Below, piece by piece: positions 1,706 through 21,363 of a stretch of DNA of 33,719 bases (positions are counted from its first letter, which is position 1; each line of letters starts with the position of its first letter). The position numbers and the translations under genes were made by a program. Below the pieces are notes generated by a model, which saw nothing but the letters and a program-made list of their open reading frames with translations, did no database searches and was not told the origin of the DNA. The DNA is from Escherichia coli. GTDB lineage: Bacteria; Pseudomonadota; Gammaproteobacteria; Enterobacterales; Enterobacteriaceae. The stretch lies in the NCBI RefSeq assembly GCF_003334315.1, contig NZ_QOWR01000051.1; one strand, 5' to 3'.

Positions 1706-2847
1706 GTCTGAATATGTTCTGGTTTTTACCGACCCACGGTGACGAGCATTATCTGGGAACGGAAGAAGGTTCACGCCCGGTTGATCACGGTTATCTGCAA
1801 CAAATTGCGCAAGCGGCGGATCGTCTTGGCTATACCGGTGTGCTAATTCCAACGGGGCGCTCCTGCGAAGATGCGTGGCTGGTTGCCGCATCGATGATCC
1901 CGGTGACGCAGCGGCTGAAGTTTCTTGTCGCCCTGCGTCCCAGCGTAACCTCACCTACCGTTGCCGCCCGCCAGGCCGCCACGCTTGACCGTCTCTCAAA
2001 TGGACGTGCGTTGTTTAACCTGGTCACAGGCAGCGATCCACAAGAGCTGGCAGGCGACGGAGTGTTCCTTGATCATAGCGAGCGCTACGAAGCCTCGGCG
2101 GAATTTACCCAGGTCTGGCGGCGTTTATTGCAGAGAGAAACCGTCGATTTCAACGGTAAACATATTCATGTGCGCGGAGCAAAACTGCTCTTCCCGGCGA
2201 TTCAACAGCCGTATCCGCCACTTTACTTTGGCGGATCGTCAGATGTCGCCCAGGAGCTGGCGGCAGAACAGGTTGATCTCTACCTCACCTGGGGCGAACC
2301 GCCGGAACTGGTTAAAGAGAAAATCGAACAAGTGCGGGCGAAAGCTGCCGCGCATGGACGCAAAATTCGTTTCGGTATTCGTCTGCATGTGATTGTTCGT
2401 GAAACTAACGACGAAGCGTGGCAGGCCGCCGAGCGGTTAATCTCGCATCTTGATGATGAAACTATCGCCAAAGCACAGGCCGCATTCGCCCGGACGGATT
2501 CCGTAGGGCAACAGCGAATGGCGGCGTTACATAACGGCAAGCGCGACAATCTGGAGATCAGCCCCAATTTATGGGCAGGCGTTGGCTTAGTGCGCGGCGG
2601 TGCCGGGACGGCGCTGGTGGGCGATGGTCCTACGGTCGCTGCGCGAATCAACGAATATGCCGCGCTTGGCATCGACAGTTTTGTGCTTTCGGGCTATCCG
2701 CATCTGGAAGAAGCGTATCGGGTTGGCGAGTTGCTGTTCCCGCTTCTGGATGTCGCCATCCCGGAAATTCCCCAGCCGCAGCCGCTGAATTCGCAAGGCG
2801 AAGCGGTGGCGAATGATTTTATCCCCCGTAAAGTCGCGCAAAGCTAA
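1702..2847 (+). CDS. ssuD: FMNH2-dependent alkanesulfonate monooxygenase
   Basis: 381-aa ORF, luciferase-like monooxygenase sequence matching SsuD; ATGA overlap with the ssuA stop. Confidence 0.93.
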
Positions 2848-2857
2848 GGAAGAAATA

Positions 2858-3649
2858 ATGGCAACGCCAGTGAAGAAGTGGTTATTGCGCGTTGCCCCCT
2901 GGTTTTTACCGGTGGGCATCGTGGCGGTGTGGCAACTGGCCTCCTCGGTTGGCTGGCTGTCGACGCGTATTTTGCCTTCACCGGAAGGAGTGGTGACGGC
3001 GTTCTGGACGCTCTCCGCCAGCGGCGAACTGTGGCAGCATCTGGCGATCAGCTCCTGGCGGGCGCTGATTGGCTTTTCAATTGGCGGATCGCTGGGGTTG
3101 ATTTTGGGACTGATTAGCGGGCTATCTCGCTGGGGAGAACGGCTGCTGGATACCTCAATTCAGATGTTGCGCAACGTGCCGCATCTGGCGCTGATCCCGC
3201 TGGTGATTTTGTGGTTTGGCATTGATGAATCCGCAAAAATCTTTCTGGTGGCGCTCGGTACGCTATTCCCCATTTATATCAACACCTGGCATGGCATCCG
3301 TAATATCGATCGCGGGTTGGTGGAGATGGCGCGTAGCTATGGATTATCCGGCATACCGCTGTTTATCCATGTGATCCTGCCTGGTGCCCTGCCCTCAATT
3401 ATGGTCGGCGTGCGTTTTGCGTTGGGCCTGATGTGGCTGACGCTGATTGTTGCCGAAACCATTTCTGCCAATTCAGGCATTGGTTATCTGGCGATGAATG
3501 CGCGGGAGTTTTTGCAAACGGACGTGGTGGTAGTCGCTATTATTCTTTACGCCCTGCTCGGCAAACTGGCTGACGTCAGCGCGCAGCTGTTAGAGCGCCT
3601 CTGGTTGCGCTGGAACCCGGCTTATCATTTGAAGGAGGCCACGGTATGA
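2858..3649 (+). CDS. ssuC: Aliphatic sulfonate ABC transporter permease
   Basis: ORF track starts at 2813; the ATG at 2858 preceded by aaggaag gives 263 aa starting [10 protein letters not shown], a hydrophobic multi-helix permease. Confidence 0.9.
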
Positions 3650-10216: not shown

Positions 10217-10246
10217 GTTACGGAATATTACATTGCAACATTTACG
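10217..10246 (+). promoter_or_regulatory. Distal OmpR-binding site F4 of the ompF promoter (recalled)
   Basis: gttacggaatattacattgcaacatttacg lies about 350-380 bp upstream of the expected ompF transcription start, where I recall the F4 site; not verified by search. Confidence 0.45.
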
Positions 10247-10496: not shown

Positions 10497-10560
10497 TTTA
10501 CTTTTGGTTACATATTTTTTCTTTTTGAAACCAAATCTTTATCTTTGTAGCACTTTCACG
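10497..10560 (+). promoter_or_regulatory. OmpR-binding sites F1-F3 of the ompF promoter
   Basis: tttacttttggttacatattttttctttttgaaaccaaatctttatctttgtagcactttcac matches the tandem OmpR-box region of ompF as I recall it, about 40-100 bp upstream of a start roughly 110 nt before the ATG. Confidence 0.6.
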
Positions 10561-14065: not shown

Positions 14066-14614
14066 CTACCAGTGCCGTGCTGGCCCGGTATCAATATGCA
14101 CAAAGTTACTACGTGGGTAATATCCTACACCACCTGCGCGCATAGATAACGCGGCTTTGCGAATATTGCTTAACGCGATACCTTCAATATGGAAATCCAT
14201 CGCCTGGCCTTTAGTGTGATAGCTTTTCTTCGCTACTCCACGGCTGCGGGCGCGTAGTTCATTGTTGGTATCAATAGAACGATAACCGGAAATGAGTTGC
14301 ACCGGTTTGCGCGTGCCTAACAACCCTTGCAGGCGATACAACTGGTCGAATAATCCTGGGTCGATGGACTTTATTTTGTTCGCGCGGTAATCGCGGAAAA
14401 AATGGTTAAGTTTTGCCAATTCTTCCTGAATATAGCCTCTGCCATCGAAAAACTCCGCTTTGATTGACTCTCCGGTATGAAGATTATTGAGTGTCAAAAT
14501 GCGCGGGCGTGGGGTAGAGAGTGTTGCAAACGCAGGGGTCGGCAGGATGGCGGCACCGAGTGCAACGCCACCAAGCGCCAGCAATTTGCGGCGATTAGCG
14601 TCGAATTTGTCCAT
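14066..14614 (-). CDS. mepK: Peptidoglycan endopeptidase with twin-arginine signal (YcbK/MepK)
   Basis: ORF track gives 185 aa from 14623; the expected 182-aa start MDKFDANRRKLLALGG (Tat-type RRK motif) is the ATG ending at 14614. Confidence 0.85.
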   Translation of the reverse strand: MDKFDANRRKLLALGGVALGAAILPTPAFATLSTPRPRILTLNNLHTGESIKAEFFDGRGYIQEELAKLNHFFRDYRANKIKSIDPGLFDQLYRLQGLLGTRKPVQLISGYRSIDTNNELRARSRGVAKKSYHTKGQAMDFHIEGIALSNIRKAALSMRAGGVGYYPRSNFVHIDTGPARHW

Positions 14615-14794
14615 GATAATCAAGTCTACAGGTCAATGTTATCGTTTATATGCACTTCTGGCGCACAAGAGGCACCTTAACCGCCCGTAAAGCAGACGTC
14701 AAGATGACTCAACCCCAGCAGTGACGGGGGCTGCAGAGAATCGCCCCCAATCATGCTAATTATTACGACAACTGATTTCCCCGAACTACTTCAT

Positions 14795-16642
14795 TTACCT
14801 GATTAATTGTTCCGCTTTCGATACGATTTGCGAGCTGGATCGCGCAGGCAGATCATAATTGTAAATATCTGTACGATACTGGGTACGACCATCTGCACCA
14901 ACAAAGGCCGTCAGGTAGTAGAGATTCACCGGAATCGACTGCCGAATATTGACGTAACGTGTATCACCCTGCTTCAGCGCATCAGAAATACGTTTGTCAT
15001 TCCAGCCTGCATCCTGCAACAGCATATTCGCCAGATCGGAAGCTTTATTCACTCGTACACAGCCTGAGCTCAATGCGCGTGTATCACGCTTGAACAGATT
15101 GTGGTTCGGCGTGTCATGCAAATAAATGGCCTCTGAACTCGGCATATTGAATTTATAGCGCCCCAGCGAGTTCCGTGGGCCTGGAGCCTGCTGGAAGCGG
15201 AACGGTAAATTCGAGGCCGTGATTGTAGACCAGTCAACCTGCCATGGGTCAATCGCTTCTCTGCTGTTCCAGCCGCGCATCACCGTATAGCCATGGCTTT
15301 CGAGATATCCCGGATCGTTGCGCACTTTTGGCAGAATATCTTTGCGTGCCAGAGTTGGAGGTACGTTCCACGGCGGGTTTACCACTACGTTGTTAAGGGC
15401 ACTGCTCATCATCGGCGTTTTGCGATCGGGGCGACCGACAATGACTCGCGAATCCAGCACCTGATTGCCGTTCTGATAGTAGACCAGCGAATAGGCCGGA
15501 ATGTTAACCATGATCCCGGTAGAAAGCTCTGTTGGCAGCAAGCGCAATCGCTGGATGTTGAGAGCCAACACGCCAGCACGCTGGGCGGGCGTTACGTTTA
15601 ACCAGTCACGTGTTGCCGGGCCAATAGCACCATCTGCCCCCAATCCTTGCCATGCCTGAAAACGTTTAACGGCTTCCACCAGTTCATTATCGTAGGCGGC
15701 GCGAACGGCAGGCGCAGGTTTACTACGAGACGTCGTTTGCTTATCCATCGGCTTAGTTTCTGCTGTTTCAACAGTAACAGCGGATGGGCTGACTACCGCG
15801 TCAGTTGGCGTGTCATCGCCAGGTAGAGTAATTTTCGGCCCCCCGTCCAACATGCCTGTGCGTTGCAATATTTCGCGCAACGCCGGTACGTCGTTACTCC
15901 ACTGCCCTGGGCGCAACGTTGCTTTGCCGGTCAGTTGGGGCCACGGTTTGGTGTCACAGAGTAAGGCCAGTAACGATTCATGCATCGCCGCATATTGCGG
16001 ATGCTGCGGTGCCAGTCCTGCAACAAACGTAGGCAATTGACCTTTATCCAGCGCCAGCTGCCATTGGTTAATCACCGAGAGCGGCGGCGTTGCAAGTGCA
16101 TAAGGTTTACTGCTATATAGCCAGCGAGTGCCTTTGACCGGAATATTTGCAATGAAATGGAGATAGCCCATCATCGCATCAGAGAGCACCACGTCGCGTG
16201 CCATCCCGTTAACACCAGGATCGGTCAGTAACTCTACCCATTTATTAAACTGCGGCTGGAAACCGGCAATCGCCACCTCTGCCAGCTGTTGCTGGAAGGC
16301 TTTAACAGCATCACGGTTTTCCCACATGGGTTGCATATCGCGTGCGGCATACAACAGTTGAAGCTGGTTAAGATAAACCGGCTTGTAACCTGCGGGTAAT
16401 TGAGATTCGATTTGCGTGCGGGCTTTTTCTGCCGCACCTTCAGGCAATGGCTGGATCCCCGCCATTATTGCCGTGGCTTGCGCCTGCGGCAGTGCCTCGC
16501 CCTGTTCACTGACAGCCACCGGGCTGTCGCCAGGGATTACTTCAGGCTCATCGGCCTGCGCATTGAACAGTGGAGCGAATGTTACGGCCAGGCACAAACT
16601 GATTGCCGACAGCCGACGACCACACATCATATTAAGCAACAT
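14795..16642 (-). CDS. ldtD: L,D-transpeptidase LdtD (YcbB)
   Basis: 615 aa with N-terminal signal sequence and a C-terminal catalytic region containing ...HDTPNHNLF...SSGCVRV...; matches YcbB. Confidence 0.92.
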
Positions 16643-16801
16643 CCCTTGCCCCCTGTTTTTATCATACTCTGAATAGCCAGGCTGTTATTTTACGACTTGC
16701 CTGTACAACGCCAATACTCACGAAAGTATGACGAGCAAGCCTGTTACTCATCAGGCTTATCTTCAGTATATAAACGCCGATACGTTTTTACATAACCTAA
16801 T

Positions 16802-16816
16802 GTAAAGAAGTTTAAA
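16802..16816. promoter_or_regulatory. Putative CpxR box upstream of ldtD
   Basis: gtaaa-gaagt-ttaaa is one mismatch from the GTAAA-N5-GTAAA CpxR consensus, about 160 bp upstream of the ldtD start; ldtD is a reported Cpx regulon member. Found by eye only. Confidence 0.3.
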
Positions 16817-16860
16817 GAAAAGCGCGCCGTAATGTGCCACTTTTTTAGTGCAGAAACGGA

Positions 16861-16898
16861 GTTTTCGGAAAAAGAAAAGGCGGCATTGCTGCCGCCTT
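16861..16898 (-). terminator. Intrinsic terminator of mukB (end of smtA-mukFEB operon)
   Basis: On the minus strand, hairpin aaggcggca / tgccgcctt directly after the mukB stop, followed by ttttctttttcc. Confidence 0.8.
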
Positions 16899-16902
16899 AA
16901 TT

Positions 16903-19900
16903 TTAACTCGCCTGAGAAGGCGCTTCGTCAGTTCCTGGAAGCGTTTCAGGGAGTTGCGGCGCAAATCCTCGCAGGCCGACGACATGAACGTGTTCGGTAT
17001 TCTGGAAGACTTTACGCACCAGTTTATAGGTGGTGCCTTTCTCCGGGCTGATATTTTCCGGCGCTGCGATGATGAGTTGCATTTGCAAACGCTCACACAA
17101 TTCAAACAGCGTGGCGATAGAACGAGCATCCAGTCGCGCTGCTTCATCGAGGAACAGCAGGCGGCAAGGAGAGATATCTTTACCGCGCAGGCGGCGAGAT
17201 TCATCTTCCCAGCTTTGTACCACCATCACCAGAATCGACATACCGGTACCAATCGCCTCACCGGTCGACAATGCACCAGACTCTGCGCGCAGCCAGCCAT
17301 CGGAACCACGGTTAACCTCAACTTCCATTTCCAGATAGTTGCGGTAATCCAGCAGTTCTTCACCGATGGTCTGCGGCGTGCGCTGCCCCATATCAATCTG
17401 CGGGTTAAGACGTTGATACAGTTTCGCCAGCGCTTCCGAGAAGGTCAAACGGTTGCTGTTAAACAGATCCTGATGCTGCTCGTGCTGTTCAGAGAGCACA
17501 TCCAGTAGCATGGCGTGCGTTTCACGCACGTTCACGTTGAGACGCACGCTGTTCACCTGACCAAACGATACGTTCTGCAACCCCTGGTTGAGCATACGGA
17601 TACGGTTCTGCTCGCGCTGAATGGTTTTGCGAATGATGTTCGCCACGCTGCGGGAACTGATCGCCAGTTTCTGTTCACGGGAGGTTAATTCTTCGGTCAG
17701 ACGGCTAAGTTCAATCTCCATCTGTTCGATAGCTTCCACCGGATCATCGGTACGAATAATATCCTGACGAATACGTTCACGCAGATGCTGATAAACCGCC
17801 ACGAAGAACTGAATTTTACGCTCCGGACGTTTCGGATCTTCCGACATGCGCAGCACGTCGCGCAGATGTTCGTTATCCGCCACCGCCAGACGCAGCGCAC
17901 CTAACGCCTTATCCGACATGGAACGCAAATCATCAGCGGAGAGATAAGCCAGCTCACGACGGTGTAAGCGGCGCTCAACGCCGTTATCTTTCACCATGCG
18001 CATCACCGCACACCAGCCCGCTTTGGCGGTCACTACCTGCTCGCGCATCTCAAAGTAATCCCGCTCCAGCTTGCGCAGTTTGCGGGTCAGGTTGTCCATC
18101 TCCGCTTCGCAGAAGGTAAGCGCTTTTTCCAGTTGATTGCGGCGTGAACGGTTATTGCTCAGTTGCGCATGCAGCTCGTCACGGCGAATACGCGCCCGCT
18201 CTTCTGCCCCGCTATCAGCACGCACGCCGATATCCTGCAATTCACGTTGCAGATCGTTGAGTAGCTCTTTTTTGGTGTCGTAAGAACTTTTCAGCGAAGC
18301 CAGCACCTGGTTGTACTGACTCAACTGCGCTGCGTGACCGCGCAACGCTTCGCGAGCGCGGGTACGCTCCGCTTCCGCCTGTTCCAGACGTTCACGCAGT
18401 TTTTCGTTGAGATCGCTGTTACCGCTAAGCATTTCTGCCGAGTCAGAATAGCTAAAGTGCGCACGACGCTGCACCACTTCCGTCAGGGCAAACGCCTGCT
18501 GACGGGCATCGCGCTGCATCTGCTGAGAGTACGCGTAATCTTCTTTTAACTGTTCGAACTGTTCCGGGTCGCTCTGCAATACCGAAACAATCGGTTCCAG
18601 TTTCGCCAGTTGATTGCCAAACTGCTGAACAAAACGCGCGGCTTCCTGGGCTTCATCCAGACGTTCGCGGATTTCATCGACGCGATCCGCCAGGCTGTCA
18701 TCAGCCAACAGGTTGAGACGCGGCAGAATGCGGTTCAGCGCCGTAACGCCCTCTTTCGCCTGCTCAAACTGAATACGCTGCTGCTGGTTATCATTTTCAT
18801 GATTACTTAACGCCCGCTCCAGTTCGACGCGACGGCTGTTCAGTTGACGGATTTCTGCTTCCGGGTCAGACTCAAACGCAACCGCCAGATGACTGCCGAT
18901 AAAGCGGCTGAACGCCTGATGCAGACGCTGAGTTTTCTGTACATCAAAGGAGAGCGTGGCGAAGCGTTCGGAAAGCACTTCACGCTCGGCATGGAGGCTT
19001 TCAATACGGCTTTCACGCGCAGCACGACCAAACAGCGGCACTTCCGGGAAACGTGAATAACGCCACTGACGATCGGCGATTTTCACCACTACCGCTTTTT
19101 CCAGCTCATCAACGCTGAACACGCTGTCATCGAATGACTGCGGATCTCCTTCGATCAGATAGAGATCTTCCGGGCAATCGGTCAAGCCTTCCAGGTGTTC
19201 AGTTACCTGTGACAGATCTGGCACCACGATGGCGTGGCGTGACGGGCCATACAGCGCTGAGAAGTACGGCGCATCTTCCAGGCTAACGTCGTCATAAATT
19301 TCTGACAGCAGCACACCACCAAAACGCTCCGCCAGCGCGTTCAGACGCTGATCTTCAGAGCCGCCAGGCTGGCTTAAACGTTCGATCTCTTCATCGACGG
19401 CGTTTTTGCGCGCGCCCACTTCATCGCGTTCAACAATCGCCTCTCGCTCACGCTCCAGCAACTGTTGCAGATATTCGGTGACGTCCTGGCTGGAGGTAAA
19501 CTCTTCGCCGCACTGTTCGCTCAACTGGTTGAGACTGTTTTGCGCTGCCAGCCAAACCGGCGCACGCTGCATCAAACTCTGAATGCGAGACTGCAGCTGT
19601 TCCTGCTCCTGGCGCAGTGCCATGCGCTCTTCACGGGCGTTAGACACGCTATCGGAAAGAGAGGCAATGCGTGCTTCCAGTTCCTGATGCAGGGCTTCCA
19701 GTTCGTCGATATCAAAATTCTTGCCCTGACGTTTGCAGAAATCTGCCAGCAGACGCTCAGCTTCTTGCTGCTCGCGTAGACGCTGTTCCAGTTCGCTTAA
19801 TCGCATCCGCAGCGGCTGAACCTGCTCTGCCAGGTGACGCTGATCGACCCCTTCGCGCAATAGTTCGCGAGCGACATCCCACGCCTCGTTACGCGCCAGT

Positions 19901-21363
19901 GGGCCGTTGATTGCCACCACCAGCTGATAAGCCTGCTCAAACTGGCTGTGCGCGGTTTGCGCCATGCTCATTTTCTGCTCAAGAGAGAGCATTTTTTCAG
20001 TCGCTTCCAGCTCTTTCGCCTGGAAGGTTTCCAGCCATTCGGCGGCGCAGTCGGCGGTTAAGTCCGGCAGATGGCACAGTTCTTTGGCACGATTAAGCGC
20101 AGCAATCGCCTGGTTATACTGGATCGCGCGCGTTTGCTGGACGTCCAGCGCCTGCTGGTAGTCAGCAAGCTGGCTTTTCAGCTCGTCCACTTCCAGTTCG
20201 GCAGCTTCCGCACGAGCCTCATTCTCTTCCTGGCGTTCGATGGCTTCTGCCACCACTTCATTTTGCTCTTCCAGACGGATCTGCAGCTCATCGAGATCCG
20301 CTTCGTAGCGTTCGATCTTCTCCTGCTGACGCAGTGCGGTTTGCACCAGGTTCAGGTGATCACTGGCCGCCTGATAATCCGCTTCCAGATCGCCTTCGGC
20401 ACCGTTGTGCTCTGCCAGCTCACGCGCCATATCGACGTGTTTGTACTGCTCAGCCGCCAGTTGCTGACGCGAAGTATGTAGCTCGCGACGAAACTCCAGG
20501 GCTTTGTCGAGATGGACACGGCGCTCGTTGGCGTGACGCATGTAGTCCGCCGCCACGTAGTTGGTGGCTTCGCTGATCAGATGCTTAAACAGGTCGCGGT
20601 CCGACTGGGTGACACGAATCGCTTCCAGCGTCATACGGTTTTCACGCAGCGCCGCTTCCATGTCCTGGAACGCTTTACGCACGCCGCTGTTTTCTGGCAA
20701 CAGGTAGTCGCGCAGAGAACGGGTAATGGCACTGGAGATCCCGCCATACAGCGAAGCTTCGATCAGACGATAGAATTTGCTACGGTCAGATGCGGAGCGC
20801 AGACGACGCGCGATGATGCCCAGATCGAACATCAGCGAGTGGTAATCAGTAATGGAGTTGAACTGTTTAAACTGCACGCCTTCCATCGCCTCGAGCTTGT
20901 CTTTCAGCTCGTTAAGCGGCAGCACGCGCGCCTGGCGTTCGTTCAGGGTTTCGGTCACCAGCTGTGTCGGCTGCACCGACATCGGCAGTCCCTGAATGGC
21001 AAACGGCTTGATATCCACTTTACGATCGCGTCCGGCAACCTGTTGCAGACGCACACCGACCACCACGCGCTGGTGGCGCGAGTTAATGGTGTCGAGCATC
21101 GAATAACAGACACCCGCTTTCAGCTTACCGTGCAGACCTTTATCGCGCGAACCGCTGGTGGCCCCGGCTTCCGTAGTGTTACGGAAATGCAGCAGGGTCA
21201 GGTCGGGGATCAGCGCCGTAACGAACGCCGCCATGGTGGTGGATTTACCCGCCCCGTTACCGCCAGAAAGCGTCGTGACCAGCTCGTCAAGGTCAAAAGT
21301 TCGGGCAAAAAAGCCGTTCCAGTTAATCAGCGTCAGTGAGCGAAATTTACCGCGTTCAATCAT
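16903..21363 (-). CDS. mukB: Chromosome partition protein MukB (SMC-like condensin ATPase)
   Basis: 1486 aa with N-terminal Walker [10 protein letters not shown], long coiled-coil middle and C-terminal [11 protein letters not shown]; matches MukB. Confidence 0.96.

Follow-up and report, generated by a model that had tools for sequence, protein, structure and literature searches.

A conserved tandem repeat at the ldtD promoter of Escherichia coli as the likely CpxR operator

Through which DNA element does the Cpx envelope stress response reach the ldtD promoter? LdtD (YcbB) forms 3-3 peptidoglycan cross-links that support survival of outer-membrane assembly defects and, together with a few other factors, permit bypass of the penicillin-binding proteins. 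These roles give practical interest to the way in which the promoter reads stress. That Cpx controls ldtD is already established, and a CpxR box at the gene is thus to be expected. Cpx activation raises YcbB protein 4.69-fold (PMC4985592), and reviews describe Cpx-dependent ldtD induction; an earlier note on this DNA, made from the sequence alone, had anticipated a CpxR site on the same grounds, a reading that the analysis below supports. An ldtD promoter fusion is also induced up to eightfold by outer-membrane (LPS-export) stress, independently of RpoS. The 15-mer considered here had already appeared, uncommented, in a supplementary table of 2022 (PMC9600279). The new part is small: the curated ldtD site is probably wrong, and a conserved repeat centered at -51 is probably the operator.

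The repeat and its matrix score

We analyzed a 33,719-nucleotide stretch of E. coli DNA (hereafter the window). The local genes are all encoded on the minus strand, with mukB followed by ldtD and then mepK and gloC. The 260 bp from 16643 to 16902 constitute the entire mukB-ldtD intergenic region. This interval is identical to that of K-12 MG1655 and was found in 5426 of 5426 complete E. coli genomes, with at least 99% identity in 5263. The following features frame the analysis, with the terminator sitting at the mukB-proximal end of the interval, between the mukB coding sequence and the ldtD promoter.

14795-16642, minus strand: ldtD (ycbB) coding sequence, 615 aa
16802-16816, plus strand (antisense to ldtD): candidate CpxR box GTAAAGAAGTTTAAA, matrix score 14.8-15.0
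16877-16898, minus strand: mukB (mukFEB) intrinsic terminator hairpin, a 9-bp stem with 6 G-C pairs, then a T run
16903-21363, minus strand: mukB

On the plus strand at 16802-16816, gtaaagaagtttaaa agrees with GTAAA-N5-GTAAA at 9 of 10 positions, which confirms the near-consensus CpxR direct repeat reported in the earlier note. With one mismatch at most, this pattern occurs four times in the window against 1.49 expected. Because the bare consensus is weak evidence at that frequency, we built a log-odds matrix from published sites, namely the 40-41 "known" CpxR sites in Table S1 of PMC9600279. The ldtD box ranked second among 67,410 window positions, and under leave-one-out scoring it exceeded 27-30 of the 38-41 known CpxR sites (about 70%). 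Table S2 of the same 2022 genome-wide scan (PMC9600279) prints 14.79 for the box (entry ldtD_976329_c), a value that our recomputed 41-site matrix reproduced. Scores in that table reach down to ~7.2, and the ldtD box stands at about twice this figure; the weight-matrix scan that had been proposed as a check on the ldtD upstream region therefore puts the box well over threshold. Equal in score is the adiA site (14.82), where CpxR binding was observed by EMSA in PMC9600279. The window also contains two literature-listed sites, which we used as internal positive controls; the ldtD box outscores both.

10497-10511, minus strand: literature-listed CpxR site upstream of ompF, score 13.6
10217-10231, minus strand: literature-listed CpxR site upstream of ompF, score 11.7

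A score this high has a probability of 3e-6 to 1e-5 per position, equivalent to 0.001-0.005 matches expected in 260 bp on both strands, and it was attained in 40 of 5000 dinucleotide-preserving shuffles of the region. Together, these estimates put the number of chance matches at 0.001-0.008 per region. Across the genome (4.6 Mb), 27-100 chance matches are expected at the same score. The box also belongs to a perfect 7-bp tandem repeat, TAAAGAA-GTT-TAAAGAA (16803-16819), that is unique in the window and arose in 0 of 100 shuffles. Its repeat unit can be written (G/T)TAAAGAA, with a 10-bp period.

Promoter context and conservation

The box had been described as lying in a 260-bp ldtD leader. Its location upstream of ldtD stands, but the 260 bp are the whole intergenic region, and the transcribed leader takes up only 16758-16643. 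The box belongs instead to the promoter, antisense to the gene, as the following elements make clear.

16758, minus strand: main ldtD transcription start site (TSS), an A, from Cappable-seq and SMRT-Cappable-seq
16765-16770, minus strand: -10 hexamer TATACT, 7 nt upstream of the TSS, invariant at columns 73-76 and 78 of alignment A1
16788-16793, minus strand: putative -35 position ATGTAA, a poor hexamer with a 17-bp spacer, assigned from the sequence and alignment A1
16792-16806, plus strand: weak third half-site ATAAC-CTAAT-GTAAA, score 7.2, in 10-bp phase with the box and toward the -35 region

In Cappable-seq data (PMC4782308, U00096.2), the dominant ldtD start is 980154, with a relative read score (RRS) of 80; minor starts at 980121, 980232, 980263, and 980280 have RRS values of 2.5-7.4. 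SMRT-Cappable-seq (PMC6131387, NC_000913.3, 0-based) places the ldtD start at 980930. With the ldtD ATG at 981047, both data sets map to window position 16758. The TATACT hexamer had been chosen as the -10 element by conservation alone, ahead of the TSS data. Given a start at 16758, the box spans -44 to -58 and is centered at -51, a position that is compatible with activation and resembles those at yccA and ppiA. The -35 position reads TAGGCA with an 18-bp spacer in most other species of alignment A1. The third half-site is moderately conserved as CTAACCTAATGTAAA and is a candidate element by sequence only. Two promoter-like sites from a consensus scan (16714-16687 and 16688-16661) were rejected as the main promoter, being absent from species with short leaders and having only minor TSSs nearby. 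A TATGAT near the ldtD ATG was likewise set aside as a promoter element, as it forms the 3' arm of a conserved RNA helix.

To follow the box across species, we scanned representative genomes once with LdtD, which gave 34 loci; 32 could be used, and LdtD identity among them goes as low as 71%. The usable loci come from Escherichia, Salmonella, many Citrobacter, an Enterobacter, Klebsiella indica, Atlantibacter, Intestinirhabdus, and other Enterobacteriaceae, at least seven genera in all, and we take CpxRA to be present in the Enterobacteriaceae compared. At 32 of 32 loci, the orthologous box is the best matrix match in the 330 bp upstream of ldtD (scores 12.8-15.3), lies antisense to ldtD, and is separated from the -10 element by a gap of exactly 31 bp. 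The distance from the -10 element to the ATG varies from 50 to 143 nt through leader indels. The ungapped 19-species alignment A1 has its invariant columns at the box and its repeat-unit flanks, at the -10 element, and at the start-site A; upstream of the box, there is essentially no conservation.

All loci keep the GTAAA half-site of the box intact. Most changes affect either the spacer or the base that opens the second half-site. That base is T, C, or A in every species and never the consensus G. A few loci also vary at box positions 12 or 15. The -10 hexamer drifts only to TATAAT, in the group of C. amalonaticus and C. sedlakii. In the alignments, box and -10 element are conserved jointly, as one would expect where the site of a dimeric regulator is coupled with a core promoter.

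We compared these features with other CpxR promoters, using TSSs from the SMRT-Cappable-seq set to position the boxes at yccA, ppiA, and degP. At yccA, the box GTAAAGATGGGTAAA repeats GTAAAG in tandem with a 10-bp period and occupies -57 to -43, nearly the placement seen at ldtD (-58 to -44); both genes have a sigma-70-type promoter downstream of the box. The two boxes differ in orientation, sense at yccA and antisense at ldtD, and in the second half-site, where ldtD has T; yccA has the consensus G in both half-sites. Also in the sense orientation is the ppiA box (-54 to -40), and the degP box lies further out, at -79 to -65. At ompC, the listed CpxR site GTAAAGAAGGGTAAA agrees with the ldtD box at 13 of 15 bases, among them the first nine and the spacer GAAG, and differs at positions 10-11, which are GG at ompC and TT at ldtD; this 15-mer was not located in the 451 bp upstream of ompC. 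The repeat unit of the ldtD box, GTAAAGAA, agrees with the strong CpxR sites at both ompC and yccA.

An antisense box is found also at cpxP, the strongest Cpx-activated gene. The cpxR/cpxP box, GTAAAACAACGTAAA, lies antisense to the activated cpxP, 79-93 bp upstream of the cpxP ATG, and would occupy roughly -44 to -58, as at ldtD, if TAAACT is the cpxP -10 element, an assignment made from the -10 match only. Unlike the ldtD box, it is a perfect consensus repeat, serves two divergent genes, and is accompanied by a second weak site over the -35 region. Judged against yccA, ppiA, and ompC, the ldtD box is thus typical in position and sequence, and its antisense orientation has a precedent at cpxP.

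The curated site and competing readings

A different sequence is currently credited with CpxR control of ldtD.

16943-16957, minus strand (sense to ldtD): literature-listed ldtD CpxR site GCAACTCCCTGAAAC, in the last mukB codons

Table S1 of PMC9600279 lists GCAACTCCCTGAAAC as a "known" ldtD CpxR site and credits Bernal-Cabas 2015; it is the only CpxR site credited to ldtD in the literature searched. The site agrees with the consensus at 7 of 10 positions; relative to the TSS, its center is at -192, beyond the mukB terminator. Its score was 6.7 with the site included in training and 5.0 with it excluded, the latter giving rank 132 in the window. It also falls under the cut-off of PMC9600279 and is absent from Table S2 of that study, which holds the above-threshold matches. 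Outside Escherichia, the orthologous positions score -1 to -20, and the distance from the end of mukB to the promoter differs in Salmonella and several other species. The published ldtD site, with which the earlier note had called for comparison, is therefore weak and unconserved and does not amount to a better-mapped rival. A CpxR site mapped elsewhere in the leader had been named as evidence that would count against the box, and a site of the quality of GCAACTCCCTGAAAC does not carry that weight. On all computational criteria, the box outperforms GCAACTCCCTGAAAC as a candidate, and the curated ldtD CpxR site probably needs correction. Training matrices and regulon databases that contain the weak GCAACTCCCTGAAAC would gain from such a correction, and 16802-16819 is the proper target for mutagenesis of the ldtD promoter.

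Published experiments bear on the two sites to differing degrees. The ldtDp-lacZ reporter fragment of Morè 2019 extends from -579 to +232; it holds both candidate sites and so cannot tell the box from GCAACTCCCTGAAAC. Our literature search returned no footprint, mutational, or site-resolved ChIP evidence on the ldtD box and no CpxR ChIP-seq at ldtD. In Bernal-Cabas 2015, CpxR~P reportedly shifted an ldtD upstream fragment that may have included GCAACTCCCTGAAAC. A CpxR ChIP-exo and RNA-seq study (PMC7657598) reports no ldtD peak and names ldtD only in its RegulonDB column; the ChIP-exo set comprises only about a dozen peaks, and degP is also unlisted. The strongest of these peaks is at yccA (S/N 58), whose expression drops 16-fold in the cpxR deletion (PMC7657598). 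In the same deletion, ldtD mRNA does not fall but rises, by log2 +1.58 in LB and +1.12 in LB plus ethanol, or about 3-fold (PMC7657598), opposite to cpxP, yccA, and degP (log2 -6, -4.1, and -2.2, respectively). CpxR is accordingly not needed for basal ldtD expression. The rise could reflect secondary envelope stress in the mutant, the action of a further regulator at the same block, or an UP-like contribution of the A/T-rich tract between -40 and -60.

With a probability that we put at about 0.7, the 16802-16816 box would be the main operator through which CpxR~P controls the ldtD promoter, as its sequence, placement, and conservation suggest; the mapped TSS and the fixed spacing to the -10 element across genera count as independent support. 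In the proposed mechanism, envelope stress would lead CpxA to phosphorylate CpxR, and a CpxR~P dimer would bind the tandem repeat head-to-tail from -44 to -58. Activators of the OmpR/PhoB family generally act by recruiting or stabilizing RNA polymerase from upstream of the -35 element. CpxR~P, seated just upstream of the -35 position, may thus recruit or stabilize sigma-70 RNA polymerase at this promoter, whose -35 is weak. The predicted outcome is a rise in ldtD transcription, with read-through into mepK-gloC, and in 3-3 peptidoglycan cross-links. In addition, the promoter has a basal activity that is independent of CpxR.

The main competitor to this reading is that the -40 to -60 block is kept for a role other than CpxR binding, as an UP-like A/T tract or as the site of an OmpR-family regulator such as OmpR itself, with the Cpx effect being indirect or exerted through another site. 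We consider this unlikely, even though the promoter is active without stress (the RRS of 80), ldtD mRNA increases when CpxR is absent, and the ChIP-exo data hold no ldtD peak. The block is A/T-rich and lies exactly at the location of an UP element; against a generic A/T tract, its invariant positions include G/C bases within an exact 10-bp tandem repeat, and invariant G/C at that period points to a sequence-specific dimeric regulator. As for OmpR, inspection by eye shows a likeness between TTTACATTAGGTTAT at ldtD and OmpR sites of the F1 and C1 types, and the motifs of CpxR and OmpR overlap at ompF1, where the reverse complement TTTACTTTTGGTTAC corresponds to the OmpR F1 site. Set against this, the literature search found no link between OmpR and ldtD, the repeat unit matches the CpxR sites of ompC and yccA, and Cpx activation raises LdtD.

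That GCAACTCCCTGAAAC is the functional site, alone or together with the box, and that the -51 box is secondary, appears quite improbable to us: its listing as a known site (Table S1, PMC9600279) and its sense orientation to ldtD have to be set against a modest consensus match, low scores, a position at -192 beyond the terminator and inside a coding sequence, and the lack of conservation. Least credible of all is a chance match without function. Tens of matches of equal score are expected per genome, and the top match in the window, at 2828-2842, is probably one of them; but chance would hardly yield half-sites that are invariant, and a spacing to the -10 element that is fixed, in at least seven genera while the flanks and leader length diverge, or a position relative to the mapped TSS that agrees with other CpxR promoters. 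Returning to the -51 repeat as the operator, we also entertain an unlikely elaboration in which the curated site is misplaced and the block, with its in-phase third half-site (to -34), would also serve a second input, either an OmpR-family regulator or an UP-like element. If true, such a second input at the -51 block would explain the rise of ldtD on cpxR deletion.

Leader, read-through, and other matrix matches

Downstream of the start site, the leader has features of its own.

16643-16757, minus strand: ldtD 5' UTR, 116 nt including the +1 base
~16757-16738, minus strand: predicted 5'-terminal hairpin
16732-16724 with 16669-16661, minus strand: predicted long-range helix, GUCAUACUU pairing with GAGUAUGAU

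In alignment A2, which contains 19 species with long leaders, 97% of cells are paired and three pairs are compensatory; most pairs never vary. The z-score of the minimum free energy of the 5' UTR is only -1.9, and no family in an Rfam scan of 16500-17000 came close to its gathering score. Nine loci have a leader of 50-65 nt without the long-range helix block, yet their box, -10 element, and ribosome-binding region are unchanged. This makes the leader element either dispensable or lineage-specific.

SMRT-Cappable-seq (PMC6131387) shows read-through from the ldtD TSS across b0925-b0926-b0927 (ldtD-mepK-gloC; window 14066-16758, minus strand), and separate mepK-gloC starts are reported at 982931 and 983022 (NC_000913.3) in the same data. 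Owing to the read-through, Cpx induction of ldtD could also raise MepK, an endopeptidase. An N6 "CpxR box" listed for mepK in Table S3 of PMC9600279, GTAAAGCAGACGTCAA (14687-14702, plus strand, score 15.5), was rejected as it is not conserved beyond Escherichia. Outside that genus, only TTGACG is kept of the 16-mer, and this is probably a -35 element.

The highest CpxR-matrix score in the window (15.0) belongs to GTAAAGTCGCGCAAA at 2828-2842 on the plus strand, where the plus-strand open reading frames 1702-2847 and 2813-3649 overlap. From K-12 coordinates, we take these frames to be ssuD and ssuC, and the match, lying in coding sequence, is probably due to chance.
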